A stretch of DNA of 64,000 nt, taken from Perna viridis (taxonomy: Eukaryota). Every line of letters starts with the position of its first letter. Within the stretch, counting starts at the first letter, position 1. The translations under genes and the position numbers were made by a program. The notes under the pieces are model-generated. The model saw only the letters and a program-made list of their open reading frames with translations. It was not told the DNA's origin and made no database searches. The stretch lies in the NCBI GenBank assembly GCA_037379345.1, contig CM074515.1, positions 21,576,001-21,640,000 of the forward strand. The letters run 5' to 3'. Shown here piece by piece: positions 10,906-60,031 of the stretch.

Positions 10906-13652
10906 ATCTTGATGTGAATCCTGAGTACATGAAGGTCATATCTGATGCTGCAGCCAATGTACAAAGGAGATCTTCTGGATCAGATAAACAGAGACATGGA
11001 TTTATGGATCGTTCTCCAAAAAGTTCATGTTCATCTCCCTCACATTCTTACATAAACAAGTCTCCAAATCAATCCTTCAGTAATCAGTCACCTCATAATT
11101 CATATTCCGATAAATCACCGAAGCATTCATTCACAGAGAAATCTCCAAAACATTCTTTTTATGAAAATGTGCCAAAAGTACATTCTCCGAAAACTTCTAT
11201 AGCTGATGGTACTGATGACACAGAATTTCTTAACAAAGTGTCAAAATTTGAACTCATTTCGCATAATAAAGCCACATCTCCAACTGTTAAATCACCAGTA
11301 AGAGTGATGCCCCCAGATACACCAAATAATGGATCTCTTGGGAACAATACTTTAAAGAGACAGAACAGCTCTTCAGGGGCATCACCACATACCGGTGAAA
11401 AGGTGTTTACTCGTGAGACTGTTACCACAAGAGTTCCTGCGAGTATTCTTTGTGGAAAATCTACCCCTGAACGTGTTCCAAGTACAGGTAGTACAAGTTC
11501 TAGCTCACTGACAAGTGTCAGTAGCAACAGTGGAGTGACACTGTCATGGAATTCAGACTCCCCCAAACCTACTCATATGAGTCCAAGTAGTAGCAAGGGA
11601 AATTCACCTAAATCTAAATCCCCACAGAACAGTATTGCTGTCACACCTAAATCAGTTAAAGAGAAGAAGCCCATTAACTTTACAGAATCTGCCACTTCTA
11701 AAGTGAGAATGGCAACCAATGCTGAACTTTTAGCAGAAAGTATTATTAATGGAGATTTCTTGGCTGGATGTGATAGTAGAAGTGAAAGTAATCGGAATAC
11801 TTTCGATGGAATGGATTTTAATTTCGATGAGTTGACTGCAAGCCAACAAGACTTATCAATAAAGCATAAGGAAATGGTCGCAGAAAGGAAAAAGGAACAA
11901 GAACAAGAGAAAATAGAAAAACAAAGATTGGAAGAAATTTTGAGTATGTGTGCTGAATATGAAAAACAAATAGCAGAGGAGAGTGTTTGTAAAGACTCTC
12001 ATAGTCCAAAACCTCATACTACTGCCTGGTCAATGCAAAAATTTCTTGATACCAACCATAAGGTTTCTGATGGACAAGGTGTTTCAGTGCCAGTAAAAGA
12101 CAGTTTTTCTTATTCAGGGGGTATACCAGCTTCAAATAATACAAATTTAAATACATATTCTCCTAGCTTCAGCCAGTCCAATGCTGTCTCCTATTCTACA
12201 TCGTATGGTTCAACAGAAAAGCAGATTGCTCCTGGACAAGTTCCTACAGATAGCAAAACTCAGTATTCAAAAACCGTTGAGAATGTGAATTCTCCTATGA
12301 TGAATGGACCATATTCACCTTGTGGTAATACTTCAGTTGCTCCTTCTAAAGGGACACCTCCTCCTGTGTCCCCAAAACCTGTAATGGTGAACAAAACTTT
12401 TGACTCTTCAGTGACTTCAACTAGTGGTGATATGGTGAGTTATCCTGTCACTATGTCAAAACAGTGGACCAATCAGCCGTCATCTTCTCTTAGTTATTCT
12501 GTCACCATGAACACAAGTGGGATACCTCCCGTGGGATGTAATTCTGGAAGTAATTCAGGTGAAATAGTCAGTACACAGAAATATTTTGCAGAAAATTCTA
12601 ATAAAAGACTATCTCTTCCTGATTATGAAAATAATATTCCATCAATTACCGACTCCACAAAACTTTCATCTGCTGTAGAGAATGTTTCAAATGCATTTTC
12701 TTCAATGGACTGCTATAGTGATGGTATTGCACAAAACAAGGGGAACAACTCTTCTATAAACAACACTCAGGTACTGCCAATGACCAACAGAATAAATGGC
12801 CCAGAAAATGTGGATTTAGGATCAGAATGTATGTCACCAAGATATGATGATAATTCATTCAAAGTTTCACAAGTTCAGAGACCCAATCAGCTACCTAGTT
12901 TTGTTGATTTTACGAAGGAGGTACATTCTCTAGACAGAAAAGAGAAATCCGAATACAGAGGCTCTATGACAAAAATAAAAACAAATGGTTCACTTACTAT
13001 GTTATCGTCCCCCAGTAATTCTCACAAGGATTTTCCGTTCAGTACACAAGTGAGGAGATGTAGTTCAAATTCCTCAAATTCAGAAGAGGAGTCGACGAGT
13101 GGCACTAACTCTGAAGATACTGGTACTATTAAACGTAGACCAGATATGAACCGTAACAAGGAAAATTCTTTGGGAGGTACATGTTCCCCACTACAAAGCC
13201 CCAAACTGTCACCTCGCATGGGGAGTAGAAGCCCTCAAGTCTCAAGACGAAATTTCAAAATTGATAATAAACCCAGAGACCCAGTACTTTCTCCTACAGA
13301 GACAATAAAAAGTGCTTTAAATTCACTGGATGAATTTATTCCAACACTAAATGGAGTTGCATTTAATGGACCAAGTGATCAAAATTCATTTAGTTCTGTT
13401 GAATTAAACCAGAGTAATGATTATCTAACCAATCAGACTCATGGGATTTATGAAAACCTTCAATGTCGAGTTGTTCCTAACGGCAGTGTGCCAACTGAGA
13501 AGGACCAAACAGTTTCAGGTTCCAGGTTGTCATCTGGATCCTTGGGTAGCAGGAAATCTGATGGGAGAATTACACCAGTCAATAATGAACCCATACTGTC
13601 TAAACCAAGGGAGAGAATTAGGTCTGATTCTTCTAACAGCAGTCAAAAGCGG
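10906..13652 (+). CDS. PHLDB: PHLDB1/2 (LL5)-like protein, large internal exon (2747 bp), Ser/Thr/Pro-rich with a short conserved coiled coil
   Basis: Lies in the 932-aa ORF. Acceptor ttccttttttacag|AT at 10905/10906 (phase 1); donor AAGCGG|gtaagt at 13652/13653 (phase 0). Encodes ERKKEQEQEKIEKQRLEEILSMCAEY, which resembles the LL5 motif ERLREQEMERLERQRLETILNLCAEY recalled from vertebrate PHLDB1. Confidence 0.9.
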
Positions 13653-20069: not shown

Positions 20070-20195
20070 GATTCAAATAACAGTCAACAGTTGGACAAAT
20101 TGAAGCAGACAAAAGCAGAGCTAGTGAAGAATATAGCTTCTCTTAAACAACAGATTGTTGATATCGAAACTCAGGAAAATGAAGCTCTTAGAGAG
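20070..20195 (+). CDS. PHLDB: PHLDB-like coiled-coil exon (DSNNSQQLDKLKQ...ENEALRE)
   Basis: tattttcag|GAT ... GAG|gtttgt; 126 bp, phase 0/0; coiled-coil composition. Confidence 0.9.
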
Positions 20196-21580: not shown

Positions 21581-21980
21581 GTAGCTGTCTTTGTAAGAAT
21601 CATGCAAAATCTGAAAAAAAAATGTGATACACCCTAAAAAAGGCTGCATATTTTTATTTTTGTAATTAAGTTGTTTTATGGGTCAATATTATGAAATGTG
21701 TAATTATTCATTCAAATCTGCCTGCTCTTGGGAGATAATAAACAATGAAAATCCAGTAGATTCTATTGTATTTGAGCGTCATTTACAGAGTTATCTCCCT
21801 TAATTTTGAAATCTACAATGCATTCTATATAATTTTTATCTCCTAAGAACACAGATTATATGAAAAACTGAATGTTAATTTCTGTTTACTATGGCAATTC
21901 AGACAAAATATCAAAAATAAAAATATGTAGGCTTTTTACCCATGAATCACATTTTGCATGATTCTTAGCTGGAGTGCTAC
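21581..21980 (+). mobile_element. TTAA-flanked MITE, copy 2
   Basis: TTAA|GTAG..TAAGAATCATGCAAA ... TTTGCATGATTCTTA..CTAC|ATAA; ends about 60 bp before the exon at 22043. Confidence 0.75.
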
Positions 21981-22042
21981 ATAAGTAGATGAAAGTTTTC
22001 TGCAATGTAGTTGGTATAATATAAATGTTTGGGCTGTTGTAG

Positions 22043-22180
22043 TTGGAAATGGAACGAGCATTACTGGAAGGGGAACACAAAACTGAGATGGAAGAATTAC
22101 AACAGGAGCAAGAAAGGATCAACACACTTAAAATCCAACAAGCAGAACTCATAGAGAAATCAGCAAAAGAACGAGAAAAG
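22043..22180 (+). CDS. PHLDB: PHLDB-like coiled-coil exon (LEMERALLEGEHKTE...KEREK)
   Basis: ttgtag|TTG ... AAG|gtatac; 138 bp, phase 0/0; EMERALLEGE matches the LL5 signature EMERALLQGE. Confidence 0.93.
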
Positions 22181-23757
22181 GTATACAAGATTCAAGCTAT
22201 GTTAGTTACTGATGGCATATGAGAAATTTTTATAAATCTTTCTCCAAACTATTCCACTAAACAGGCAAACAAACAAATTTTGTGATGGTCTTCACATGAA
22301 ATTTATGTGAATTGAACCTTCACATTAAACTGATGCGAATTGAGTCTTCACATGAAGTTCATGTGAGACTTTCATGAAAATCTTGTTAACCAATTTCCAT
22401 GTGAAAACACATAATATTTCATGTTAAATTCATATGAATTTCAGGTGAGTCTTGATTCACATGAATGTAAACTATTTTTGCCATTGTACTGGGTAGTCTA
22501 TGGGTATAATTAAAAATAAAATATTATGGTATATTGAAGTTTCAAGACCTTTTTAGTGTCTGTACATCAAAAGATCTATATATTTCAAGATGACCAATGG
22601 GTGTTTTTGGTGGTAGTTCACATTATGACCTGTTAAAAAATTAGGATTATCAATTAAAAGTAGATTATACTCATAAAAATTATCAATTAACAAAAAATCA
22701 TTGGTTTTTGATTAGTACTTGATCATATAATTGATTTAGAATTTTAAAAAAATATTAAATAACTTCCATTACATAAAGTTTCATGATCCTGCTGAAAAAA
22801 GAACCAACGAGGGGTCTGTTTTTTAAAATAAAATATTAGGGATACACGTAGAGACAAAATAACCCAGGAAAATGTACTCTTTATTTTTATTAAAATTACT
22901 CTAAATTTTTTTCATTAATGCAGGCAATACTGTTGGTTAGTATATTGTTACGTGCTGCACCTACATGTGCATGTTCTATTTTTGTCGTGAACCCGGCTGC
23001 ACTTACATGTGCATGCTCCATTTTTGTCATGACTGCTTGCCAGTAAATCCAGTATGTCTATATTTAGGTTTTTAAAATATGTTTATGTTTCACAACTAAA
23101 ATATCATTCCAGTATCGTATTCACCGCTGTATCTATCTGTTAAAATCTGAATCATAAATATATGGAAAAAATTCTCCACTGTTTGATGAGTGGTGTCAGT
23201 TTTCAGTTATCTTGTGTGTAAGATGTCGGTGATATGAGGGGATGTCTTTATATGAATGCATATCTTTATACCATTGATATTGTTGTTGATGATAATATGA
23301 ACATTTTCATAAATACCAAGAACATCCGTACATGATACCCTGTGTCTCAATGGTATTAAAATTCATAGCTTTTGAATGATTCTTTATGGTGATTTTAATA
23401 TATACAAGTTATGAATATTTTACATTGACCTGAGTCAGTGGTTGTTAAGTTATGGATTCTTTATACTGACTTTTTGATAATGTTATAGATTTTTGAGTCT
23501 TTCATAAAGATATGACTCACAATAGTGCAATGCAATGGGTTCATCCTTTTACAGGTATTTTTAGACACAACTCTGAGATAATTGATTGGATTTTGGTTTG
23601 CGTACATGAAGTTGATCATTATCTTATTATCATCATTTTTTTGATTTGAATAATTTTATGAGAGTTATGGGACTTACATGCATTACTTTTTTTAATTCAG
23701 CAGGAAACCTATGGCAGTGTGTAGCAACTTTGTGAGAAAAAAAAAAAATAATAAAAT

Positions 23758-23983
23758 AAAATCCAAAGTTATGGTATATTTATGGAAGCTTGGAGTGCTA
23801 GATATGAATCCTTTTCTTCACCTGACCTTTTCTGTACCTTTAAATTGATGGACACTAGTCAGAGTATATAAAAATTCCAAAGTTATTGTATATTTATGGA
23901 AGCTTTGGGTGCTAGATGTGAATCCTTTTCTTCATCTGAATTTTTCTGTACCTGTATATTGAGTGACGTTGGTCAGAGTATAT
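23758..23983. repeat. 114-bp tandem duplication
   Basis: tccaaagttat.gtatatttatggaagctt...gtcagagtatat occurs at 23762 and 23876. Confidence 0.9.
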
Positions 23984-26187
23984 CAGTGGTTGTCATGACT
24001 ATAAGTATCTTAAACTGAAAGTTTTAAAAATCTACCAAGTCTAATTCAGTTTTTGTGTCCTGAGGTCAATTGAAATACAATCTCCTGCACAAAGGGTATA
24101 TTCCCTATCTCAAAGCTGTACACCTCTGTCACACTCCGTATTTAACTCCACCCCTTTATGCAAATTAGTACAGTGCACTGGAAACAGCTTCACAGATTTG
24201 CAATGAGCAATGGGGAGTGGTACATAGAGAAACATGAATTTGTTATAGGTCTGGGGAGGAGATTGGTTGAAATAGTGTGATATGACCTATATACTATCAG
24301 TTTTACTAGTACTACTTTCTGTGAATTCCTCTGTCATTCTCCTGGGTCCCCATAAAACTTTGCATGAGGCATTTTGTGCATTTTATTATGTAATTTAAAC
24401 ATACAGGTAGTATTTTATTAGTTTGTCCATTCTGCTTGTGAGGAAGAGAACTTGAAATTAAAGTTAACATAAAAAAAATTAGCACCTTCCCAAAAAGATT
24501 ATAATAAATCCATGAAAGTAACAAATATTGTTGACTTGTTAACACATTTTTAGTAACCTTGATATAAAATATACTTTGAATCCTTTTCTTACATGATAGG
24601 ATATTTTAAGTGCTAAACAGTTCAAAACGTTTTCTCAGAAAATGATTTTATTTCGAATGGTATGAGACCTACAGTATAATCCTACATACAGTATTAGGTT
24701 CTCTGGGATTGGCCCCTAGTGTAAACCAACAGGAAGTTTTGTCTTTCATTTACCGGTAAACTGTAGTTTTTTTTGGTCTATTTAAAGTGAAAATGTGAAA
24801 GAAAATATTAACAAGATAACTAATGAGGAAAGTGATTTATTTATTGCATGTAATCAAATAATGTTTTAGAGTGTCAAATCTGGTATGATTAATGATATTT
24901 TTTATGTAATTAATGCATTGAAAAATGTTAATCAATGCATGTAATATGTATCTGTGTAACATTTTAGAAAATAACCAATAATGACATTGTTATTTTCATT
25001 CTGTATACCCCTGGTATATTGATTTTTGTACATGAAGTGCATGCATCCTTAAAAAAATAGGAAATGTTGTAGAAAGTGGAAGAATTCCAGCAGCCATTTG
25101 AAATTGTGTTTTTTTTACTATTGTTAAGAGGGCTTTCCCTAGCTTACTGTAAGTGTTAGTTGTGCTTCTTGGCATCACTATATTTTTTATGTGACCCTTC
25201 TTTATGTAATTTTACTATGAGTACACACGTTTTTCCCTCTACACTTTGACTTATAGATTTTTACTTGTAAGGGAGTGATACATCCTTGTTTTTCAGTTAG
25301 GGTTCACATCATCACAATATAAACAACTAAAATTCCATGTTAGAAAATCATTTAAACCTGAGTGCTGCGGTAGGTTCCAGGAACATTGAAACTTCCTTTT
25401 CCACAATACATCAAATTGGTTTAAGACCTCCTTGTTTATCCTATTGATCTCATTACTTGACTTCCATGCTCCTGTGATGGCCATTAAAAATGGTTGGACT
25501 TGAATAGACAGCAACAGTGGAGATTATTTGATGATTCTGGCTACCCAGATTATCAAGCAGATAGGCTAGATATAAATTTAACAAAGAATTAAAAGCTGAT
25601 AACGGGATGTATATTTTTAAAAAATCCCAACCTTGATTAGAAATTAAAAGCTCCACATGAGTTGAATGTAAAAGTTCTTATGGTGAAATTTATTACATAT
25701 TCCTGAACACTGAATTCTAAAAGTTTTCTAGCTTTTATAATAAATGTTCAAATTTGATGGCATACTTAAAAGATTTTCATATACCAGTATTTTATGAAAG
25801 TGGGTTAAATACATTCAAAGTGAGCTTTCAAATGCTCTTGCTAGAGAATCACTTCAAGCTTTCTGTCTTAATTATGAAAATAAGTTATGAGGTGTTTTTG
25901 AGATATATGGACTGTAAATTTAAATGTGGAGAGTGAGCATAAGCTTGAAATATATTGAAGAAAATGTGAAGATTTATTATGGCATCTCCACTGCTTCAAA
26001 TTTATATACATTACTTAATGGAACAAAATGTTAAATATATCATTGAAAAAACGGTTAGATTTGCTGAAGAATTGATAGAGATTTTTTTATATTTTGTATA
26101 TTTCATATTGAAATTGTGAGGTTAAATCTGTTTTCCCAGTGTATTTTTACTGTTTTGGCTGAATATATGAACTTTGTTATTTTTAAG

Positions 26188-26379
26188 GAGATTGAGATAA
26201 TGGATAGAAAACAGGAAGAACTTTTCAGTCTAGAAAAGAAACATTTTGAGACTGAACAGTTACTCTCCAGTTGTAAACAGGATGAACAAGATCAGATCAA
26301 GGACCAGTTCGATAGGGAGCAAGAATTAATTGACCAGAAACGGAAGGATTTTGATGATCTGGAATTCAAACAACTGGAG
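26188..26379 (+). CDS. PHLDB: PHLDB-like coiled-coil exon (EIEIMDRKQEE...KDFDDLEFKQLE)
   Basis: ttttaag|GAG ... GAG|gtaatg; 192 bp, phase 0/0; FDDLEFKQLE matches LL5 FEDLEFQQLE. Confidence 0.93.
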
Positions 26380-26393
26380 GTAATGTTTTAATA

Positions 26394-26751
26394 CAGTGAA
26401 ATATATCTAAACTGAACTTCTTTGGACTGTAGAATTTGGTCGCTTATCCTACCGGTGCACCTGGTCCATGCTCCCAATTTTTAGTGGAGTCCGAGTTGCT
26501 CATTTGTTTTTGTTACTTTGTATGTATGATTTTAGTTACTTTATGTTCATTGTTGTGTATGTCTGCTTTCCATGTCTGGTCTTTGTCCCTGGATTACATT
26601 CATTTGATTACCGCTATAACCTTGGTTCCCTTAATTGCTCTTAGACAGGTGTTTGGGTCATCCAGGTTCAAAATACATTTGGACTGACACAATGGGAATT
26701 CTGAATATGTCTGGTTAAGACAGGTTTTCGGTTTAATCAGGGATTTTACTG
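26394..26751. mobile_element. Tc1/mariner-pogo-like MITE (TA|CAGT...ACTG|TA) carrying a nested insertion
   Basis: Same family as 44331-44508 (opposite orientation); interrupted at about 26442-26640; starts 14 bp into the intron after exon 26188-26379. Confidence 0.65.
26442..26640 (+). mobile_element. Dispersed repeat, probably a Penelope-associated terminal fragment, copy 1
   Basis: Highly similar to 34015-34217 (ccggt.cacctggtccatgctccc..ggagtccgagttgctcatt..ggtctttgtccctggattac). Family assignment is from recognition only. Confidence 0.65.
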
Positions 26752-27431
26752 TACTTTAGGAAAACCACATTGGAGATATATATTTATCATAAATCTGCTA
26801 AAGAATGAGTAATCAATGTAGCAGAACTTAAAAATAACCAAAATTATTGCTCAACAAGTTGTGGTTTATCGGAATCTTCTTTTTCATCCTATCCTCTGTG
26901 TCTGGTGACAATTGTTTTGATTCCCAGTGGTTGGATTGATTTCAAATTTGGTATGTAGCTTTAAATTGGTCGGGCATACATTAAAATTTTGGTTGCTGCC
27001 CACTATCGTTTTCCTATTTTATTGGATTGCCATACTATGGGGGTATAAATAGCATGACAATTCATGCAACTTTATATTTGGATGCCAGGGTTAAGGCACT
27101 TAAATTTAAAATCTTGTGAGAAATTTTGCTCTTAATTTTTCAATTTGTACATACCTCTTTATAGATACCGGTACTTAATTTCTAGACTTATACATCTAAG
27201 TGTTTTTATTGCAAATAAAAAATAAACCAGTTATGTTAGATTTGATTGGTCACAAGACAGAAACTAAAGATTTCAAGGAATTTTGTTGGACATAAGAACA
27301 AGAAAGGGATAGTGCTCTGAAATTCAACCAAAACTCCAAGGAATTTATAGTAGAATTCAGAGACAACTACCTTATCTTTCCTATTCCATGCAGTGACATA
27401 AACACTAAACAAAACTTGATGTTAATTTCAG

Positions 27432-27524
27432 TCTGAGGCAAGGTATGAAGAAGAAAAAGAAAAGTTACAGAAGAAACTAATGTCTGATCAACATAAGCTG
27501 TTAGAGAGATATAAAAGTAGAGAG
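27432..27524 (+). CDS. PHLDB: PHLDB-like exon (SEARYEEEKEKLQKKLMSDQHKLLERYKSRE)
   Basis: aatttcag|TCT ... GAG|gtatgt; 93 bp, phase 0/0; continues the LL5 ESRxEEERE pattern. Not in the ORF track because it is too short. Confidence 0.9.
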
Positions 27525-28638
27525 GTATGTCTTCAACTGGTGAGGTGGTGTAAATAACAAAAAAGGGGGTCTTTGTAAGTAGAGAGTATGTTTACAGCTG
27601 TATAGGGGAGTAAATAACTAAAAGGGGAGTCCTTGGATCTAGCTATGTTAACACTCTAATGCTTTCCTGAAGAATGAATTGCTCTTAAAGATAACAGACA
27701 TTAGTTTACTTCAGGACTTCAATAAAATTTAAAATAAAACAAAAATAAATTCATGAAAATTAGCATGGTCTTTTTTATAGACAGATTTTTTATGTTTCAT
27801 GTAAAGGTACTTAAGCTAACATTATACTTACTTGTTGAAGTGAATAAATCAAAATGATCGACTTAATGGGAGAGAACTTCCACATACTGTCATAAGTTTG
27901 CGGGATTTTTTGGTTAAGTGAAGGTATTGATTTCCTAACCATAAATTGCTTGGCTATGCATTTACTAAAAGTAAATATTGATGACATATTTTGAGTGGTA
28001 GTTAAATCCAAATTCTAACCAAGATTTTTTTCAGAACTTAAATATATCTGATAAAAAAAAACAATCATGAGGAAAAACTTTATTGATAACTACACTTATG
28101 GATATTTAGCAAGTTTGAAAATACAAAGACAACATTATTATATTTTCCAACAATGTAATATTTTTTTAATACAATTTTTATCCCTCTGTCATGCAGACAA
28201 GTCAGTGACAGCTCTAATAACTTTAGAAAACATTTCTTTGCATGTATCAACCTTAATGTTTGGACAGTATTTGTCAAGGGGATAAAGTTTTGAACAACTG
28301 GCCCCAAGTTACTTGAATTGTATAAGGTCCTCTTTACATTAATGAAAAATCAAACATTTCTTCTGAAAAAGAAAATCATATCAAGGAAAAAAACATTTGA
28401 CAGCTCCCCCCTCCATTTCAAGCAGGAAAAAAACAAGCCAGATTGCACTGTCTAGGTTTCAAAACAGACTTTTTTCAAATTGGCATGGTCCATTGGCCAC
28501 TTAACCAAAGCAAAATTGTACATTGTACCACCAATAAAGCTGATGTTAATCTTGAGTTGCTTCCCTTTAAAATGATTTTATATTGATATCTATAAAAATG
28601 ACCAAAATACTTGATAATGAATTTTCACATTTTGATAG

Positions 28639-28749
28639 AATCGACTGAAACAAATAGACACTCAACAAAGTGAGATGTTAACTGGTGTTAGGAAAGACTT
28701 GGAAATTTTGGAACAGAGTCGACTACAGCTTGTGGAACAGCTCAGAAAG
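28639..28749 (+). CDS. PHLDB: PHLDB-like exon (NRLKQIDTQQSEMLTGVRKDLEILEQSRLQLVEQLRK)
   Basis: ttttgatag|AAT ... AAG|gtctgt; 111 bp, phase 0/0; resembles LL5 ERLAILDSQ...LQLLQK. Confidence 0.88.
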
Positions 28750-29538
28750 GTCTGTCTGTCTGATCCATGTCAATGTAATTATTAATTCAGTGTTTTGTTA
28801 TACTTTGCTTTTTTGCTTTATTTGTTAGAGATTTCCAATTTTTATTCCTGTTTCCTAATTTTAGTTTTAGTTTTGGTATATTTGTTTTTCTCTTGTGTTT
28901 ATTACACTGTGTTTTGCTTTTTATAGTATTAAAAGGTATTTTATCTTAATTCATACTTGAATCCTTTAATTTTATGAGCTGATGATGATAAGGCAGCAAA
29001 CTGGTCTGAGTTTGCACTTGAAATGTGCTAACTGTTTGACAGAATCTAATTTTTCCTGTTAGCCAATTAAAATGCCAATAGTGACTATGAACTCATTTTC
29101 TACCAATTACATTCACCATTGACATTCTGGACAATAATGCTTGTACTGAATCTCAAATTATCCTCAAACAAAAAGCAGTTCACCTAAGGTCTTTCATTTT
29201 TTGCGGTATTTTTCAGTAATAATTTGAAACAAATACATGTTTATGTTATTAAAAAACTAACCATACTTATAAATTGAATAAATGTCATTTTTGTTTTTAA
29301 TTTTGTCTTCATCAAAGTCAGCGTTAAGCTTGCCCTATTAAGATCACTTGACATTAACTGCAATGACGTCATTGAAGACACAATGCTGTTTATTCCATAT
29401 TAACAAATGGTATCTGCTCATAGAATTTAAAAAAAAACATGATTCTCCCACCTGAAGATTGGAAACCACTTAAGAATTATAATTTACTATTTAATATTGT
29501 ATTTTTCTATGTGTGAAGTTACGGACTTTTATTTCCAG

Positions 29539-29616
29539 GAAAGCACAAAATTAATAGAATTAAAGAAGAAACTAAAATCCCAGACAAAAACTGATGAAGA
29601 TGACTTTTCAGATGAG
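29539..29616 (+). CDS. PHLDB: PHLDB-like exon (ESTKLIELKKKLKSQTKTDEDDFSDE)
   Basis: ttttatttccag|GAA ... GAG|gtatag; 78 bp, phase 0/0; resembles LL5 EKEKLTVLERR. Confidence 0.85.
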
Positions 29617-30172
29617 GTATAGCTTGAGCACAAAATTTAATCTCTTCACAACTAATTGAAATGGGATACAATACTAATAATAGGTTGAAATAGGATTTAC
29701 CAAAGTTTGAAGTACTTAAAAAAAATATAGAAATAAGTTAAATTTTTATCTAGGGAATATTTGTTTTCTAGCATAATAGATTGCAGCAAATCAAATTTTA
29801 TTTGATTTACTTAGTTCATAATTGCATGATATGTTTTTTTATTTAGTATTAGAATTGTTGACTCTGGCTTTTTTACTCCCCCATTTCACAATAGAGAGTG
29901 CTTTTTTTCTTGGTTTTGCATGCTTTTCTTCTTATTTTGTATTTTTTTTTACCTATATCATCAATGGTGAAAGCCGATCTAGTTGCTTGAATCAGTTTGT
30001 CTGTCCATCCATCTGTCACACCGACTGGGTACCTACTTTTAAATCTGTTACTCAAAAAGCATTTTACTAATATTATTCAAACTTTGCACAGTCTTTTTAT
30101 TCATATCGAAAATGTGAATCTCTTATTATGGTGAAATTATATTATTTTTTTTCAACATTTTTAGCATGTTAA

Positions 30173-30550
30173 GTAGAACTCCGCATAAGAATCATGCAAA
30201 TGTGAAAGCCTACATATTCTCATTTTTGATATTTTGTTAAAAATGTCATAGCAAACAGAAAGTAACATGTAGTTTTTCATATAACCCTTGTTCATAGGAG
30301 ATAAAATTTATATAGAATGTACTGTAGAATTAAAAATTAAGGGAGATAACTATGTAAATTACACATAGAATTTATTGGATTTTCCATGTGTATTATCTCC
30401 TAAGAGCAGACGGATAGGAATGAATTATTATACATTTCATCATATAGATCTACATGTATAAAGCAACTTAATAACAAAAATAAAAATATGAAGCCTTTTT
30501 AGGTGTATCACATTTTACAGAGTTTGCATGATTCTTAAAAAGACTGGTAC
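30173..30550 (-). mobile_element. TTAA-flanked MITE, copy 3 (inverted)
   Basis: Reverse complement of copies 1 and 2; TTAA|GTAG ... GTAC|ATAA. Confidence 0.75.
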
Positions 30551-31036
30551 ATAAACATTGTCTTCTCACTGTATGTTGTCAGTGATAATACTCTGTGTAA
30601 TCTATAACTTAAAATGTGTAATATCAAACAAACTTTGCAAACTGTTTATCGGTATACATACATATTCTTTGTTTACTGTTTTGATATGGAAAAATGGAAG
30701 AACTTGTACAATAGATTAAACTCCTAATAAATACAGATGAAGAATTGAATGTTTGTTTGTAGTTCTAGGATCATCATGAATACATGATAAAAAGTCTAAT
30801 CATGGCTTGATCTTACAAATAATTTTTGAAAGAAAATGTATATTGGTACATGTGATACTATTTGTCCACAGCTTTGACATGTACATGTACTATCTCGGAA
30901 GAAAATGTTATTGAAAATGTCTAAGCGCTTACTTGTCATCTTTATGATTGTCTAAAAAATGATGAAGGTTACATTTAAGTGTTGATAACACAAAAATTAG
31001 TCCATGGTATTTCAATGTTTCATATGATTCTTGCAG

Positions 31037-31208
31037 GAAAAACCAGACAGTTTCTCAGACATCAACCAGAATTCCTCGCCGAAATCTTCTATAGTTAACA
31101 GTACTACTGTATCTCATTGGTTAACTAATTCTGCCAAAGGTGAGAGAAAGAAATCTGCCACAATGCTGGAGATCGAGAAAAATCACACACTTTTCCTAGA
31201 GCAACAAG
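31037..31208 (+). CDS. PHLDB: PHLDB-like exon (EKPDSFSD...SATMLEIEKNHTLFLEQQG) ending at a GC donor
   Basis: ttcttgcag|GAA ... CAAG|gcaagt; 172 bp, phase 0/1; SATMLEIEK...LEQQG resembles LL5 AATLQDIETKRQLALQQKG. Confidence 0.88.
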
Positions 31209-31963
31209 GCAAGTAGTTCGTACACTGACACTGGGTTATCTTTGATTGGACAAGAGTTATCTCCCTCATAACAGTATTTTATTTAATCATTTTACATGGA
31301 AATTTACTTGTTATAAAATTTCAAAAAAGCTGTACCGTCTGTGTTAGGATACCAATCCAACTTTTTTTTTTTTAAAATTGGTATTATGTTTTAAACCTAA
31401 TTACTCACTGCTTCTATGAAAGAGATATTGTTGCAGTTTTTAAAATGTTGAAAATAGCTTATGTTAACATAATTTACAATGCTTATGATTAATTTTTGAT
31501 GAAGCCATAAACATTTGCACAATAATTAGTAAAACATTTGGGAGATGATTCTGCATAAAGATTAAATATTAAAATCATGGATGATTTTCGAGTAGTAGAC
31601 AAAGTTGATGGACTATTTGTATCCATTTGATAACCCACTTTTTGCATGTTCAGAAAATAATTAAAACCTGAATGATCAGTGTACTAGTGCTTGACATAGG
31701 AGTTTACTAATGTAGTATGCAGAGACAATTCTTGGCTATTACTGTAGCTGAAGTTTTGTTTTTGCACTTTGTTTACTAATAACTGTTTTGTTTTTTAAAT
31801 TTATTATTAACTTTTTTCTCCTACTTACAGGTAGTTGTTTTATCAATTTCTTATTTCATGGTTTTGAGTTTTCTATGAGAGTAAAAAAATTATTCTTTGC
31901 ACAGATGTATTTTGTAGTTCTAGGTTCTCTCTTATTATTTTGTTATATTTTATGTGTTATATA

Positions 31964-32153
31964 CTGTGAAAGTACTTTAATTCATGGATTACGGAGGAAA
32001 CACAAGTTCATGGATTCTGGAATTCGTGGTAATGAGGTTTTCAGGATACACATTGATGGGAATCTTCTTTTCGTTCTGAACCAAATTTTGTGGTTTGGTC
32101 TACCCATGAAAACCATGAAAATTGGTACCCCACGAATAATAGTACTTTCACAG
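31964..32153 (-). mobile_element. TA-flanked MITE (CTGTGAAAGTACT TIR), copy 1
   Basis: TA|CTGTGAAAGTACT ... AGTACTTTCACAG|TA; reverse orientation relative to the other three copies. Confidence 0.8.
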
Positions 32154-32960
32154 TATCAGGTAAAGTTGTCAAGATTCAAAATTTTAAGTTTGGAGTTTTA
32201 TTAAATAAATATATTTGATATGGTGAATGTTTAAAAGAGGCTTGTAGTACTAACATTTCTTTTATAATGAACAAATTCGTTTTTTTTTGCCACTTTCACA
32301 ATGTTTTCAGTTTGATAACATTAAAATGTTAAGTTTCCATTATATTTTCCCTTTTTAAGTGGATTTTACACAAGTTTCTTTTAAAAACTTCTTATGTACA
32401 ATTTGTACACATTCATGGAAATGAATATGATTTTTTACACTTTAATTGTTTCAACAGAAAAATCATTATTTGTTCTGTCATCTGAGTTGCTTCCCCTCTT
32501 CATTCTTTAGAAACATCTGTTGTTCATCAAGTCATCAATCTAAAACTATCTTCTGTTTTGATATTTAGGGCTACCTAAAACAGGTAATGTTGTTCTGACA
32601 CTTATTCACCTTTATTAATCATTTATAATTATTTCATTTGGAATCTTGATTTGGTAATTGGGAAGTTTTATTTTTATTTTCAAATCAGAAATGGACATTA
32701 TATTTTATAGTATGAAAATAAATGTAGGTACCAGGATTTTCAAGCTGCTGAACATTTATATAAACAAGTAGGATAAATCTGGGTTATAGTTGGAGCTTTC
32801 ATTTATTTAATTTTTTTTTTTGTTTTTTTTTTATTTAAGTGGAATTGAAGAGTTTTGGAAATCCTTAACTGTACATGTTTTGCACTTTTAAAAGATTCTG
32901 AGAACATGTATTTCATGTATATGGCTGATATTATAAATAGTTTGCATGAGATATTTAATA

Positions 32961-33213
32961 CATACCTGTTAACCCTCCCACATTTTGGGGGAGATCCTCA
33001 CAAAATCAATGAAAAATTTAGAGGATCCCACATAAAAATGACAGATTTATGGGAGGTTTTGGTTCAAATTACTATATTTTCTGTGAAAAAATATTAGATA
33101 ATTGAATTTTTACTTTAAAAAAAGAAATTGCTTTTATGTCAAAATCTCCCACATGAGACAGTGTCGATGGGGGAGAATTTCCTACATGAACTGTTCCCAG
33201 GTAAACAGGTATG
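32961..33213. mobile_element. TIR element (CATACCTGTT...AACAGGTATG)
   Basis: 14-bp near-perfect TIR and internal ctccc/gggag motifs; no clear TSD. Confidence 0.55.
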
Positions 33214-34014
33214 GTAAGATGGTTTACAGTTTCAACTAGTAACATTTTGTGAGCCTGTCCTTTCTTGGGTGTTTAATCTGCTGTCCCTCTGTCCATTAGT
33301 CGACACTTTGTACAATAACTCAAAAATGCTTTGAGGGAATTTAATTTTTTTTAGTACATGTTTGTGTTCATTGAATTCATTTGTTATTAAATGTTTCCCC
33401 AATTTCATTGTTTTAGAGTTATGTGACTTTAAATATCAGGAAAATGGGGAATGGGCATATCATGTGCTATAAGGCAGCCATTTATTTTACACTCAATTAT
33501 TATTTCTCGTACACAAAAGTCAAACAGCAGAAAATGATTTCTTGAATTTACTCAAATGGTTTCAATGTCACGTTTAATTCTTATAATTATTATCGGAAGA
33601 CATTTAGCTTTCTTATCAGGACAGTTTTGATTTTATTTTCCAATATCATTATTTCCCACATAATATCAATACTAGCAGTAAATGGATATAGCATCCGATT
33701 GGTCATCATTTTTCTTTTTCGTTGGTGTGAAGAATTACTCCAATTTAGGAAGCTGATACTAATAGAGCACACCCACAAAGCAATCATATTATAGTCATGT
33801 TGATTAATATTGTTTACATTAATTACACCTCCTACCCTGGTTTTGTGTAGTCATGTAGCCATATATAATAGTCTTAATAGATATGGACCATATGAATTCT
33901 GATGACAACTGTTTTAGGTTTTTAATACCCCGATTCCATGGGTGGTTTAATGAAATCATGTCTGTCCATCCTGCAGAACCATGTTGCAGTTATCTTGACT
34001 CCCAAAAAAAAGAG

Positions 34015-34217
34015 GACGTTTACCCTTCCGGTACACCTGGTCCATGCTCCCAGTTTTTATTGGAGTCCGAGTTGCTCATTTGCTTTTGTTACTATTTATG
34101 TATTATTTTAGTTACTTAATGTTTTTTGTTTGTATGTCTGTTTTCTATGTTTGGTCTTTGTCCCTGGATTACTCTCTTTTGATTTCCCCTAGAACCTTGG
34201 TTCCTTTGATTATTCTT
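34015..34217 (+). mobile_element. Dispersed repeat, copy 2 of 26442-26640
   Basis: Collinear high similarity; explains the similar spurious ORFs at 26436 and 33883/34044. Confidence 0.65.
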
Positions 34218-35286
34218 TCCCAATGGATGGATATATGTTATTTGGTATGTGACTTTATTAGATGGGGCATACATTTTAGGGTATTTTAGATGTTGTCACA
34301 TGAAAACTTTTATGAGTATATGATAATTTTGCCTTGTTTCATGGTGTAGTTTGTGATGATATTTTATTTACACAGAAAAAGTAGCCATGGGTTACTTTGT
34401 CAGTCCTTAACGCCTTTTTGTTACATTAAACATGTTAGTGCTAAGCATGAAAAACATGACAAAACATGTTACAAACTTTCCTGTGATATATTTTTTATTT
34501 ACTTGTGAAATAAATACTATAGCATCATTGTATTAGAAAGAAATTGCATTAATGATTTTTATCTTATTAAAGCATGTCATATTCTGCTTTTAATTACAAT
34601 TTAAATTTCTTCTTTAGAAACATTAAGAATTAAGAGAGCATTGCATAATATAAGTTTTTTATGGTAATGATAAAGAAATCAGAAATGAAAACCTGCAGTC
34701 AATTAAAGTAAAGCCGGGTATTGAAATAAATAAATCAATGAAGATATTTCCGTAAAAATAGTGATAAGAAGTGTTTCTTCCGAAGATAAAAGGGTTTTGT
34801 CTTTGATTATTCTCTGATGATTTTTGGATCTTTTTGATCTTTGTTTCTTGTGTATTATGTAACTACCTTGTCTTAATGAAGGGAAGAGTAAGACTTGGTC
34901 TCCTGTTATTATCTTGTTAATTAAGTTTTGTGAAAGCCATCTAAACTGAGCCTTGAAGAAACAAGAAACCCATCTAAACTAATCATGTGGAGAATACTTT
35001 TCTTATCACTTTCTATGTATAGTGGACTTAATTAATACCCAACTACCTGCCCTACTCAAAGAAAATATCTGAGGCAAGGACATCTCTCAGAGGCAGATCC
35101 AGGACTTGGGTTAGAAGGTGGATTGTAAATAGAATTAAAGGGTGAGGGAATCAAAGCAAGAGAATTTTTGGAGAAGAATTTGTGAAAAATCAAGATTTCA
35201 TGCATAAAATGTTCTCCCCAATTTTTAGGGGTGAGGTGTACACCAAGTCCAATGAACCTACGTCTGTTTCGCTAAACTAGTCTCAG

Positions 35287-35616
35287 CAGTGGTATTTTTT
35301 GCTTTAAATTACTTTTGAAATAAGGCTGTTTCTTTAAATGAAAGTTTCCCAGTTTGTGACAAAAAATGGCTCAAAACATTACCAAATAAAGATGAATTAT
35401 TTCCCAACAGGAAGTCGTCGGGTAAGGATTCAAAACTACGTTGATTAATTGTTCATGATTTCTTTTTTTATCATCCTCTATAAAATGAATGATTTCAACG
35501 ACAGGTTCTAGGTTTTGTAGTGTTATTCCGAACTTCCCAATTTTAAAAAAAAATTATGCATATTTTCCCAATTAAAAAAGGATAAGATCGGTTTTAAAAA
35601 GCCAACAATATCACTG
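35287..35616. mobile_element. hAT-like MITE with an imperfect 5-bp TSD
   Basis: CTCAG|CAGTGGTATTTTTTTGCTTT ... AAAGCCAACAATATCACTG|CTCAC. Confidence 0.55.
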
Positions 35617-36717
35617 CTCACAATTCTATATGGATTTGTCATGTCATAATATTTGTCAGCATTTATTTCATGTTACTTTGTTTTTAAAAATTTTCAGCTT
35701 TTAAGATTTTCTTGCATGAAACTTCACTATGATGTGAATAGAGATAAATAAATCATAAAACTATTTCTTTTAGGAATACTTAAGATGAAATTCTATTATT
35801 TAATTTGGGCAACATTATAATGATGTAAAATATTAAGTTGATATTGATTATAATTATGTCATACACCCTTTAACTTTGAAAACATGAGTTTGGAATACCA
35901 TTATGATTTTTCAATCAGGATTTAATACTGTTGTCTCTCAAACAAGTCAGAAATTCAATTATATCTTTACCATTATGTAAATCCTTTATCAGGGAGATCA
36001 TAAGTTAGTGTTTTATTTCCAAGGCATTAGCATGTGTCATCGTAGATCACTTTTTTGACATGTCTATTAAATTTGATAATAGTAGGAATCTTCTGCTTAT
36101 TTCCGATCTACATCAAATATTTTTAGTACCAAGCTTACTTAATTGTGGTGAGTCTTTTTTTGGTTTCCTTTGTTGTAATAATAAAGATGACTTTCAGGAA
36201 CTGAAATCCATTTCCAATTCCTTCTGGGAAAGTTAAGCCTTATCTGTTAGTGGAAAACCAAAACAAATCACTTTTATTTCTTCAGTAATGGAAATGTTGT
36301 TTTTTTTTTTCAATATTTGTTGAAAAGTTTTTTCTTACAAGTATAATTTTCAGGATATTTTTAAAATTGATGGTTTTTTTTAATACTTGTATTTCATTTA
36401 TTTAGAGCAGTGTAATTTAATATTTAACATTAAAGCTTCCTGAGACTGTCAATTATTTTATTTTCACATGTATATGGTGTTCAATAGCTTCAAAATATTT
36501 CTACTGCACTTAGCAAATTTAGTAATTCCCCCTCAGTATTTACATGACTGAAGGGGGGATTAAAAAAAATGTATTCATATTATTATAGCATGGCACACTT
36601 TCATTTTTTGGGGGTAATAACATCTTTTTTTCCATAGGAAGAACTTTCATAAACTGGGTGAAGCTGGTTGTTAAGAAAAGTTCTGATTATTACATTTTTT
36701 TATTATTTCCTTGTTAG

Positions 36718-36904
36718 GAAGTACATTGATTGAGCAAGAAAGGAAAAGACTAGTAGAATTGAAAAGGAGGGCAGCAGATGAAGGTCGGGCCCAGTGGGAG
36801 GAGAGAAAAATGAGAGAAGCTAATTGTAAAAGTTTTAACTCCCTCGAATCAGAGGACTCCAGTATTGCTAGCAGCTGTGAAACTCCTTCAGAGAAAGAAA
36901 CAAG
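36718..36904 (+). CDS. PHLDB: PHLDB-like exon (GSTLIEQERKRLVELKRRAADEGRAQWEE...SLESEDSS...EKET)
   Basis: atttccttgttag|GA ... ACAAG|gtatga; 187 bp, phase 1/2; resembles LL5 VIEEQRRRLAELKQKAAAEAQCQW and SLESSDS. Confidence 0.93.
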
Positions 36905-54433: not shown

Positions 54434-55584
54434 TATTGTCTTTGATTACCATTGGAAGAACTGGTGTCAGGTAGTCAGTTGTAGAGAGTTTTGGTTCCCT
54501 TTTTTTGGAAAGAGGGTTTAGGGGAGCTGACTGATTCCTTATTTTATTGCCGTTCATATGACCTTTGTAAATGGAGAATAAGTTTACTGGTACTTCATTG
54601 GTAGTACCAAAGGTACTTTTACTATTATGGTTAAGTCTTTTATCTTTTATATTTTCAATACACATGTAAACTTCATTAAAAATTGATTTCCAAAACAATT
54701 TAATTTAAATAAAAGCAACTGTAAATCAATTAGGTTACCTGCAAGTCAGATTAACTTTCTCAAGAAAACATAGTGAGAAAATCATTGAAGCCTTTATAGT
54801 ATTACGTAACAAGTCTAAAGGTTGTTTCCGTTAATTCTTTATGTTTTGCAAAAGATTGATTGATCGATTGATTACCTGAGTTGAACTTGGATTTTAATGC
54901 TATTACAGCCATCTTAGGTCATGCTTAGCAGATATGTGATGCTGAAATATGGAGAGATAACCATCATCAGGTTGGAAAACAATTGTTTATAGGATTTACC
55001 AAAGTCAGTTGATGACTGCTAGTTTATCTCTTCTCAAAGGTCAAGGGATTAAAATATGATATTGGTTGATGAATCTGTAATCTAAAATATGCTAATGAGT
55101 TTGAATAATTTAATAGATTTGGAAAAAATTGCATTTAAATTGAAGTTTTAGCATAATTGATTTCTAACAAAGGAAAAATTTCATGGGTACTCTTGTTTAA
55201 AACATTTTAAAACTTGAAGGATGTTTGATGCTAACACAAAAATGATTTCATCAGCAATTGATTGAATTTGTTTTTGATTATCATCACGCAATTGTTAGTG
55301 TCTGGAGTCTATAAAGAAACACATGTTTACTGATTTTGTTTGGCCTTAGAGATTTATAAATTAAGTTCTATGGTACTTTGGAAGTCCACTTTCTTACTTC
55401 ATATGACATAAATAGAGCATTGGACTTAGTGCAGACACTGTTGCCATAGATATCAGAGCGTAGAAGGGGTTCAAATCATGCTGAGAAAGCAAGTAAATTT
55501 GCGTCCTTGCATCAATTTTAGAGTTTAAATGGACCTTAAGTAGACTTTAAAAATGTTCTTTTTTTCATCTTTGCATCAACATTT

Positions 55585-56432
55585 AATGTTGATCCTAGCT
55601 GTGTTGATGTTGATACTGGCTGTGTTAATGTTGATCCTAGCTGTCTTGATGTTGATCCTAGCTCTCTTAATGTTGATCCTGATCCTAGCTGTGTTAATCT
55701 TGATCCTAACTGTCTTGATGTTGATGTTGATTCTAGCTCTCTTAATGTTGATCCTAGCTCTCAGTGTTGATCCTGATCCTAGCTGTCTTAATGTTGATGT
55801 TGATCCTAGCTCTCTTAATGTTGATCCTGATCCTATCTGTGTTAATGTTGATCCTAGCTCTCTTAATATTAATCCTGACCCTAGCAGTGTTAATGTTGAT
55901 AATAGCTGTCTTAATGTTGATGTTGATCCTAGCTCTCTTAGTGTTGATCCTGATCCTAGCTGTGTTAATGTTGATCCTAACTGTCTTAATGTTGATGTTG
56001 ATCCTAGCTCTCTTAATGTTGATCCTGATCCTAGCTGTGTAAATGTTGATCCTAACTGTCTTAATGTTGATGCTGCTCCTAGCTGTGTTAATGTTGATCC
56101 TAGCTGTCGATTATAGCTTTGTTAATGTGGATTGTAACTTTGTTAATGTTGATTCTAGCTTTTTTAGTGTTGATTGTAGCTTTGTTATTGTTGATCCTGG
56201 CTTTGTTAATGTTGATTGTACTTTGTTATTGTTGATCCTAGCTGTGTTAATGTAGATCCTAGCTGTCTTCATGTTGAGGTTGATCCTAGCTGTTGATCCT
56301 TGCTTTGTTAATGTTGATCCTAGCTTTGTTATTGTTGATCCTAGCTGTGTTAATGTTGACCATAGCTTTGTTAAAGTTGATCCTAGCTTTGTTATTGTTG
56401 ATCCTGGCTGTATTAATGTTGATCCTAGCTTT
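55585..56432. repeat. 21/27-bp minisatellite array
   Basis: Unit aatgttgatcctagctgtgtt with 6-bp (gttgat or gatcct) insertion variants. Confidence 0.95.
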
Positions 56433-57771
56433 GTATGCTATATGGTTATATAGTTCTGTACTATCAGTAACATTGTAGAGTTTCCCACATCTCATTAGAC
56501 TATTTTTTTTAAATTTCCTTATAACAAATAAATCTTATTGCTCTATTTAACTAAAAAAAGTGATGACATGAAAACTGTTCATTTTCAGAATCCATAAAAT
56601 ATTAAAAACCAGTAAAATATATATACTAACAATACTTCACATTATTTTTTTTATTTTTTTTTTTGATAAAAAATTCAAGTTAATGAGCCTGTACTTTTTG
56701 TTTACATATCACGATCAAATGATATAATGATTATGTCATTTATGAATAATTGAATTTGACAAAGTTGTTGTTGTGCTAATTACTTATAGTGAAAACGATT
56801 GAAATATTATTATCATGATACCACTAGAATTACAGAAAAAGTTTCTAATTTCTCTACAATCAATAAAACAATAGAGCCTTTGATGAGGGTCTATCATCAA
56901 ACAATTCCACTACAAATTCTCCCCTGATTGGTGGACATGGATTCTTGGGACAAACAGAGAATTTATTATTGTGAGGTGTGTCGCAATTATCAAAATTACT
57001 GCATTGACATTTCAGTAACTGGAGTCCACAGTGCTTAGAATTATTAGCAAAAAAATCTATATACTGAGATAGAATGATATAACCATTATCATAAACTGTA
57101 AAGGTGTTGAACTGTGGGTAATCATAAAACAGAAAGTCTACATCCTGTCAGAGATACACTTCTATTGATTCATTCACATTTTTTTAAGGACAAAAATAAA
57201 ATGAGGATGTTCCAATAATGGACTTGATTAATGTGAGGAGTTTTTAACTTTATGGGATCTTATCATGATTTTCTGATTGCTTTGGAAGCCTTTTATGATT
57301 TCTCTACACTTTAGTGAATTTAGAGATGTTGGAAAGTTCATTAAAGTATGCTGTAGTGTTGTGGTGAATTCTACGATACATGGATCATTTAAACCCAACA
57401 TTGGTGTTCTGATAGCTGCTTTACTCATGTACATTTAAACATGAGGAAATTGGGTTTTTGTGGACATGCTAATAGCCGTTGTTTGTATTGGTTATACAAT
57501 TTTCCATGAAAAATTGCCAAAGTCACGCATATTCTCTATATCTGTTAATTTCATAATTTTATTTATATTTACCGGTGAGTTACGACTAATCATTGGAAAT
57601 ATACAGCAAAATTATCTTGTAAAATATTTCTGTTATGTTCTATTGATTCTGTTAAATATTTATAAAGAATAGAATTTATTTTACAATATATGTAAACTGT
57701 GTATTGAAGACCAATTATTTGCAATGATGATTGAGGAAAATATAATTGACAGTTAATCACTCTTTGATCTG

Positions 57772-57861
57772 ATTATAAGGCAGTCTCGAGTAAAGACCGA
57801 ACCGTTACAGCAAGTTGCAGCAGGTACCTGCTATTTATTATTAGAGGTGCATTAATTCTTA
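57772..57861 (+). promoter_or_regulatory. Candidate TATA-type core promoter and 5' UTR of the 57862 exon
   Basis: TATAAGG at 57774-57780, 88 bp before the ATG, followed by a local CpG cluster (tctcgag, accgaaccg) in otherwise CpG-poor DNA. Confidence 0.4.
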
Positions 57862-58937
57862 ATGCAAAGTTCTGCTAATTGGAAAATGGATTTGAGTGGA
57901 ATTTTCTCAGAGTATAGGAGAAAAAATGGGATTTCTCACCAGGTTGGAGATGTGGGAAAATCAGCTATGCCAGGATTTAGTAACCTGACTTATGGAAATA
58001 AGAGCAGTTTGTCACTGGACTCTCCAACACGGACTGAGAAATTACAGGTAACTTTCTCAACTCAAAGGGAAGAGCGAGTAAAGGATATTGAACGTGACTC
58101 TGGTATTGAAATTTTAAATAACAAAACAATTGATAGTGGGTCTAAAAATTCTGACAAGTTTTTGAATAGCTTAAGTAACAGTAACACTGTAGATGATGGT
58201 TTTGTTGATATATCTAGTCCAAACGATAGCGATTCAACATCATCTGTGGAATCCAAAATTTCCATTCAGAGTGTCAGAACACCAACTGACATGGCAATAG
58301 CAAGGATAGTGGACAGTAATGGTGGACAGGCCTCACCCTCGGTCAGAACACCACAGAAAAATGTTAGAATCAGTCTCTCTAGACCTGAAGTAATGCAGAA
58401 AACAAGTTCAGGGATAATGTCAAAACCAGGAACACCACAAAAATGCATTGCATCAAAACCAGGAACACCTCAGAGGTGTTCCACTGGTGTTTCTCCTCAG
58501 CATAGTACATCACAAAAAGCAAGCTGTTTGAAAAAGATAGCTGTGAATTCTCCATGTACAAGTAGGGAGCTAGACTTAGTTATGAATCATCATCGAACAA
58601 GTCGGGAGCAGGACAGAGTAGCTTGTTTACATAAGAGAACCATGTCTGCAGACAGATTTGCAAATCACAGCTTGAGCGATTCAAGGAGTAACCTAGGACC
58701 ACCTTTGAATATAAAACACTATAAGAAACAACAGGAGTCTCTTTTCGCAGAGAATAGGAATTATGATCAGTTGTTCCAGAATTTATCACTACGCAGTGAA
58801 ATGAAAAGTCGCCAGGAATTTAACAGTAAGAGTGATATAGATGATATGGAATTATTACCCTCATATTTTAATTCTCAAGGATTTCAACTGGATTATTGTT
58901 GGTTCTGTGGAAGACCTATGAATCTGAATAGTTCAAG
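57862..58937 (+). CDS. Probable alternative first coding exon of the PHLDB-like gene (or first exon of a nested gene); about 358 aa, Ser-rich, with a C-terminal CWFC motif
   Basis: 359-codon ORF with higher GC than its flanks. In-frame stop at 57853 just upstream of the ATG. The ORF stop (58939-58941) lies inside a strong donor, TCAAG|gtaagg, of phase 2, the same phase as the donor at 36904. Confidence 0.7.
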
Positions 58938-60031
58938 GTAAGGGCATCAGGGATATTTCTCTGTTAAGAAGGAATTTTCTACTGTTAGTAAATAGTCCAG
59001 TTTTGGGGTAGACTTATATTTTTTCGTGGTCTTCTGATTGTTTGTGTGTGTGTGTTTTTCTTTTGTTTTGATCTATAAAACACATTTTAAGACTCTTGTG
59101 AAGGTACATTGCTGTATGTTAACAACAATGCCACCAAGCTAATGTACTATGTAAGATTCACTGACTTCGTGTATTGTGTAACTTCAGTCAATTGTAGTCT
59201 TTTTTTTTTCTTGTTTGTCTACTGATGCTGAAGAAGAGGATATTTTGTGTCCAATTTATGGTACTATGAGTATAATTAACTAAGGAAAATAACGAGAAGA
59301 CACATAAAAAACACCTTTGTTGTAAAATAATCTGATCTTTGTATAGCTTCATTCCAAGAGTCAATTGAACTTAACACTCCCGGTGAATTATTTGTCTGAT
59401 CTTTGGTTTATAGCTGCTAGCCAATCATAAATGAATTGTCTAGTTACAGCAGTATTGCTGCGAAACTAAAACCCCTCAAGACCTTTCGTCCATTTTAGTC
59501 TTCTAATTAAATTTAATTTTCTTGGCTTCTTTCCTGTTTTTGGCTGTGCTAAGATGAAAATTTAAATGTCATTACCAGCAATGAAATTTTATCAATAATT
59601 GACATTATACAGCAGATAACAGGAGTATATATTTCTTTTTTTCCTGTTATACAAAGTTTCCAAATTAAAGAGATTTTAATTGAATTGATTTGTCTTATAG
59701 TGCTTATCATTAGACTTCAATTTTCTGTGATTTTTGTCCTTTTTTTCCCTGAATGCAGATTTTTAAACATATTTCTTATTGGATAAAATTGCAGTTATTC
59801 TAAATCATGCTCCAAGGTATACCCTATGTATCAGTACCAGTGATCCTTATATTTACCTTCAGTATCTATATCAAGGCCTGCATTGTTCTTCAGGTTTCAC
59901 CTTAATCAATATGAAGGCTTTAAGTGCTTCTAATTTTCCTTAGGTATCAATTTCTTGGCCAGAAATACTCTTCAGATTTAACCTTAAATATTAATATCAA
60001 TATCTGTCTCTCAGATTTACCCTAAGTATAA

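Follow-up and report, generated by a model that had tools for sequence, protein, structure and literature searches.

The window analyzed here, a stretch of 64,000 nucleotides (G000:C5:21576001-21640000), contains exons of a PHLDB/LL5 gene on the + strand. The encoded protein has a C-terminal PH domain preceded by a coiled coil, homologous to PHLDB, its long form carries an ELKS-binding motif, and the nearest proteins bear the name PHLDB1. The exons of the long form map to 20070-36904 and are followed by a GT-AG intron of 33,233 nt. Within this intron lies the exon at 57886-58937, whose properties agree with those expected of an alternative first exon in this mussel gene. The features of the gene are as follows.

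11841..11972, + strand: ELKS-binding motif of the long form, in the large exon (match to PHLDB2 chain 8whm_B, E 9e-7)
26185..26379, + strand: coiled-coil exon of the long form ending in a likely CLASP(TOG4)-binding motif, placed through the homologue P0044
36717..36904, + strand: last long-form exon before the 33,233-nt intron, also with a phase-2 donor
57126..57885, + strand: unspliced 5' leader, from contig pieces, with many short upstream ORFs and an inexact start site
57886..58937, + strand: coding portion (350 codons plus 2 nt) of the alternative first exon, Ser-rich and predicted to be disordered
58938..58943, + strand: phase-2 splice donor, joined to the shared exon that begins at L002:6138 and lies beyond the window, 11.2 kb downstream

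The splice was seen in all four runs examined, which come from four studies. In each, contigs end at 58937 and continue with 26 nt equal to L002:6138-6163; these runs were taken as RNA by guess, and such contigs drop rare forms and cannot show the start site or the tissue. Two 18-nt matches from an unrelated contig were disregarded in the mapping. The shared exons downstream are L002:6138-6234, L003:134-280, and the PH exon L003:2002-2445, the last two placed by homology. The same arrangement is found in the Mytilus edulis model P0007 (544 aa, named PHLDB1), in which the orthologous exon is joined to three exons ending in the PH domain. The alternative N-terminus proposed in an earlier sequence-only reading of this DNA is thus confirmed by both the spliced contigs and the M. 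edulis gene model. The sum of the exon lengths gives a short product of about 580 residues, which is presumably transcribed from an internal promoter and translated. In runs X1 and X3, the contigs show variants at 58734 and 58887, and the one at 58734 fits a Gln/His difference in P0006.

The reading frame is preceded by an in-frame stop immediately before 57856, and the in-frame ATG at 57862 has a weak context. The Met at 57886 (A at -3, G at +4), where similarity to the relatives begins, is the likely translation start. On the 5' side, contig pieces extend to 57126-57327 in three of the four runs, and the longest single contig begins at 57577. The transcribed leader holds 18 upstream ATGs with short frames between 57201 and 57727; they may damp translation, or the true start may lie closer to 57600. 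An 850-bp degenerate minisatellite (55583-56434) lies about 0.7 kb upstream of the leader and explains several spurious ORFs, and the other Met-started frames of at least 60 aa in the 33-kb intron were judged by eye to be repeats or noise. No splice into the exon from upstream was found in the contigs of the four runs. The exon might nevertheless be a symmetric cassette of the long form, entered at 57869 by way of a weak acceptor, where an AG in phase 2 is present, with both flanking junctions in phase 2 as well. However, this position is crossed unspliced in three of the four runs, the fourth starts after it, no loose end occurs at the acceptor, and similarity to relatives begins only at Met 57886. 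We therefore regard the cassette as very improbable.

The short and long forms share only their last 228 residues. In LL5-beta, a protein of 1253 residues, ELKS binding was assigned to residues 306-562 and CLASP binding to 563-916 (PMC10337942, accessible part), and the shared segment lies C-terminal of both regions. The CLASP-binding motif was located through P0044, a long-form homologue whose residues 141-188 match PHLDB2 chain 8whk_B (E 0.0012) and map to 26185-26379; this exon queried alone gave no match to 8whk_B. Both structures, 8whm and 8whk, are deposited for the CLASP2 and ELKS2 complexes according to the available sections of PMC11297316, and the order in which they are listed there would indicate which code belongs to which complex. 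Both the ELKS- and the CLASP-binding motif are encoded by exons that precede the alternative exon, and the short form has neither, which makes a role of this form as a microtubule anchor unlikely and speaks against the earlier suggestion of a cortical microtubule-anchoring isoform. Like PHLDB1 and PHLDB2 (LL5-alpha and LL5-beta), the long form has the ELKS-binding motif, coiled coils, and a C-terminal PH domain, whereas in the short form everything except the last 228 residues is replaced by an unrelated N-terminus. Pfam assigned no family to the alternative exon, to the large exon, or to one of the coil exons. A search of the genome for FHA domains returned 16 matches, none near the PHLDB/LL5 gene, a blank result that is no proof of absence. 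The downstream neighbours, judged by eye, are presumably an alkaline-phosphatase-like gene (L004:751-6548), a frameshifted LINE reverse transcriptase (L007:5304-8151), an out-at-first-like gene (L009:214-3462), and DNA polymerase epsilon-like exons on the minus strand of L009-L011.

All motifs on which the sequence-only reading was built were confirmed at their positions within a single + strand frame, 57856-58941. They are listed here with the conserved segments found in this study.

58090..58113, + strand: ERDSGIEI, an 8-residue invariant run in mussels containing DSGIE at 58096, a non-canonical DSG motif
58132..58152, + strand: DSGSKNS, species-specific, likely chance
58180..58236, + strand: invariant island of 19 residues that includes DDGFVD and, overlapping it, the xLIR match DGFVDI
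58192-58209, + strand: DDGFVD, within the 19-residue island
58348..58476, + strand: three T-P-Q-K/R proline-directed kinase sites in a segment prone to repeats
58684-58710, + strand: RSNLGPPLN, a match to RxxLxxxxN without conservation, likely chance
58816..58923, + strand: most conserved block, ending in CWFCGRPM (58897-58920), the sole part common to snails

Four relatives of the exon were found, all mussel-like: one from Mytilus coruscus (57% identity) and three other proteins (49-50%). The resulting alignment holds five sequences from three mussel lineages with 56-64% identity between lineages, and 148 of its 351 columns are invariant (background 42%). No longer homologue was present among 1,996 candidates, a search of 1.84 billion representatives returned one match (P0005), and the ESM Atlas gave no usable match. 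Chance rates were obtained from 20,000 composition shuffles. Under the alignment, the motif cluster noticed in one sequence splits into chance matches and real islands: DDGFVD, DSGIE, and TPQK stand as conserved islands among mussels, while the D-box and DSGSKNS do not.

The pattern RxxLxxxxN is the consensus of the APC/C D-box. The letters at 58684-58710 match it, but only one of the nine columns is invariant, the full D-box is absent from this N-terminus in the seven other mussel sequences and in three snail sequences, and no KEN box is present in the alternative first exon. The pattern occurs in 10.9% of shuffles, and an ordinary Ser-rich exon of 942 aa in the same gene contains both RxxLxxxxN and KEN, which indicates that such matches arise easily. 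The D-box is therefore likely a chance match, failing the conservation test that its proposers had called decisive. Similarly, DSGSKNS had been read as a beta-TrCP degron and does fit the DSGx(1-3)S pattern, yet two of its seven columns are invariant and DSGx(2-3)S/T appears in 9.9% of shuffles, so that it too is likely due to chance. At least two DSG motifs occur in 1.6% of shuffles. All five columns of DSGIE are invariant, inside the 8-residue run; this motif has Glu and no second Ser and does not conform to DSGx(1-3)S.

The six columns of DDGFVD are all invariant and belong to the longest invariant run of the alignment (19/19 columns), a length reached in none of 20,000 column permutations. 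DDGxxD occurs in 0.43% of shuffles. Since 10% of all 6-residue windows in the mussel alignment are invariant, one conserved hexamer is not rare in itself. The six residues are identical to residues 268-273 of CDC25B, a phosphorylation-independent beta-TrCP degron (PMC9606124, excerpts), and the earlier comparison with this Cdc25-type motif is supported. DDGFVD is also predicted to be disordered and has five lysines within 40 residues (at -37, -23, -16, -12, and +21), so that the features expected of a DDGxxD-type degron, a conserved motif, disorder, and nearby lysines (PMC4729826, partial text), are all present, in mussels only. Unlike the CDC25B degron, the mussel motif lies in an unrelated protein, is conserved among mussels only, and is a candidate. 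DDGFVD may plausibly act as a constitutive beta-TrCP degron restricted to mussels.

The same island may alternatively be an LC3/GABARAP-binding motif, and the short form would then be connected with autophagy or Atg8-coated membranes instead of beta-TrCP. In all five mussel sequences tested, DGFVDI agrees with xLIR (PMC5119064, partial text); it is their only match and has acidic residues before the Phe. However, xLIR is unspecific, being matched in 23% of shuffles against 0.43% for DDGxxD, and the match is absent in the two snails; we consider this reading unlikely.

The excerpts of PMC9606124 report beta-TrCP activity as about the same in G1, S, G2, and M and describe DDGxxD degrons as constitutive, and the surviving degron therefore predicts steady low levels of the short form, not mitotic destruction. 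This result goes against the proposed mitosis- or meiosis-regulated degradation. In a literature search, nothing was found that links PHLDB2 with beta-TrCP degradation in mitosis. The results do not reveal a programme of mitotic or meiotic destruction for the short form, and nothing ties it to oocytes.

TPQK occurs at 58348 and 58432 and TPQR at 58465, the latter two within a duplicated SKPGTPQ, and SPTR at 58021 is a further S/T-P-x-K/R site that had not been noticed before. At least four such sites occur in 0.13% of shuffles, a rate that is too low because two of the sites arose by duplication. Each of eight mussel sequences has 3-6 copies of TPQK/R, with varying copy number and positions. 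In the mussel-like lineage of P0003, P0005, and P0026, a 14-residue tandem repeat carries one TPQK per unit, and its copy number differs between alleles or species. The full CDK consensus is present at four of nine S/T-P sites here and at 4-6 of 9-11 in the mussel relatives, versus 1-2 of 18-19 in Bulinus and Biomphalaria. The putative CDK sites claimed for this exon are kept, as a repeat unit, in all eight mussel sequences. This enrichment, the survival of TPQK through repeat expansion, and the invariance of two beta-TrCP-like motifs in mussels would suit a cell-cycle-regulated short form, in which CDK1 acts on TPQK and DDG together with DSGIE directs destruction by beta-TrCP in M phase, perhaps in eggs. 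However, the TPQK copies are duplications and not independent, and other proline-directed kinases read this motif too. In addition, the D-box is not conserved, KEN is missing, and the flat beta-TrCP activity and constitutive DDG (PMC9606124, excerpts) do not suit an M-phase switch. Such regulation appears doubtful.

The most conserved block of the exon is its end, which had escaped the sequence-only reading, with 32 of 35 columns invariant in mussels. A search with residues 255-430 of P0007 returned 14 proteins. In the Bulinus and Biomphalaria models, an unrelated Ser-rich N-terminus of 590 residues ending in YQLEYCWFCGRPM is joined to the same coiled-coil exon. These two short forms lack the D-box, DSG, and DDG motifs, ERDSGIEI included. 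All 5- and 6-mers common to the mussel exon and the two snail N-termini fall in the CWFCGRPM motif, whose pattern has a single occurrence in this genome. In a Batillaria model, the motif is represented by its upstream half, and CWFCGRPM is missing. The short forms of the snails cluster separately from Haliotis (99/99) and may represent a separate gene, a paralogue. In P0033, P0034, and P0035, the snail short forms, the coil is 12-14 residues shorter and the PH domain has diverged. Near the start of the mussel exon, YRRKNG (57910-57927) is identical in Batillaria P0035 at residues 116-121 (0.7% of shuffles), with RNGY/KNGY near the starts in L021 and L027 and GKNGI in two snails; it is possibly a second old element.

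The pattern was also scanned against metagenome contigs, and three of the ten matches (L021, L023, and L027), taken to stand for two animal lineages, were retained. The other seven (L018-L020, L022, and L024-L026) have neither upstream similarity nor a phase-2 donor and were rejected as chance. In the retained contigs, of which L021 and L023 have 92% DNA identity, a 46-codon exon ends in the CWFCGRPM motif and a phase-2 donor, and 16 further residues are shared with the snails (0/20,000 shuffles). Comparison of their frames gave 20 synonymous versus 10 non-synonymous codon changes, and 27 of 39 differences fall at third positions. The retrieved parts of these contigs yielded no PHLDB exon. Degenerate copies of the motif-plus-donor end lie just downstream of the exon in L021:1539-1942 and L023:2020-2343.

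The CWFCGRPM motif resembles the CxxCG motifs of zinc knuckles. It has the C-x-x-C-G-x-P spacing and a small predicted hairpin, whereas the exon holds only one knuckle, and another chain or region would be needed to supply the second pair of ligands. In a structure model of the M. edulis form, which is of poor quality (mean pLDDT 41.6, and below 50 for residues 15-300), the hairpin at 301-311 (pLDDT just above 50) lies on the cysteine motif and is followed by a helix at 320-397. A fold search with this low-confidence model gave no match at E 0.001, weak PDB matches to ribosomal L34e (E 0.16-0.55) were not significant, and a literature search found no paper on CWFCGRP. The motif may serve as a metal clasp, a lipidation site, or a docking site. 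The exon ranges from 46 codons in L021 and L027 to about 590 residues in snails with this motif alone in common, and mussels also have invariant runs without a known motif (EFNSKSDIDDMEL and PGFSNL). Both observations would agree with a function of the terminal cysteine motif only, the mussel islands being other docking sites or slowly evolving filler and their degron likeness a coincidence. Against this, an exact six-residue degron match stands in the longest invariant run, with predicted disorder and lysines nearby, and we give the coincidence little credence.

The best explanation of these results is that an internal first exon is spliced to the last three exons and would yield a short protein of about 580 residues in which the coiled coil and the PH domain are retained. 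Lacking the ELKS- and CLASP-binding motifs, this form likely works as an adaptor that binds membrane lipids and is not coupled to microtubule anchoring. The CWFCGRPM knuckle directly before the coiled coil would be its old functional core, probably a binding site or metal clasp of a new kind. Turnover control may be added in mussels by the disordered tail, with DDGFVD likely recruiting beta-TrCP constitutively and the TPQK repeats taking proline-directed phosphorylation, while the D-box is a chance match. Taken as a whole, this explanation has in our judgement about an even chance of being right. We see a much smaller chance for a more far-reaching account, in which the short LL5 form is ancient across molluscs and perhaps beyond, its CxxC knuckle holds two chains together by means of zinc (or carries a lipid), and the resulting redox- or metal-sensitive dimer replaces ELKS/CLASP anchoring and competes for PIP3. 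Mussels would then have grafted on a CDC25B-type degron by convergence, which would keep the form scarce. Isolated PH domains of LL5-beta neither localised to nor disturbed receptor clusters (PMC2171857, accessible part), which argues against simple competition for lipid.

Bivalves and gastropods have an identical CWFCGRPM in an exon whose other parts differ more than tenfold in length, which points to a binding function not yet described and easy to test. It is common for a scaffold to be shortened by an internal first exon. No account of a short LL5 form with the eight-residue cysteine motif was found in the literature searched (main texts and listings), and the accessible parts of PMC7278972, PMC2934625, and PMC10443533 describe no such isoform. 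Automatic gene models in Mytilus and snails already contain this short form, and the Biomphalaria one is labelled 'serine-rich adhesin for platelets' in databases, a misannotation.
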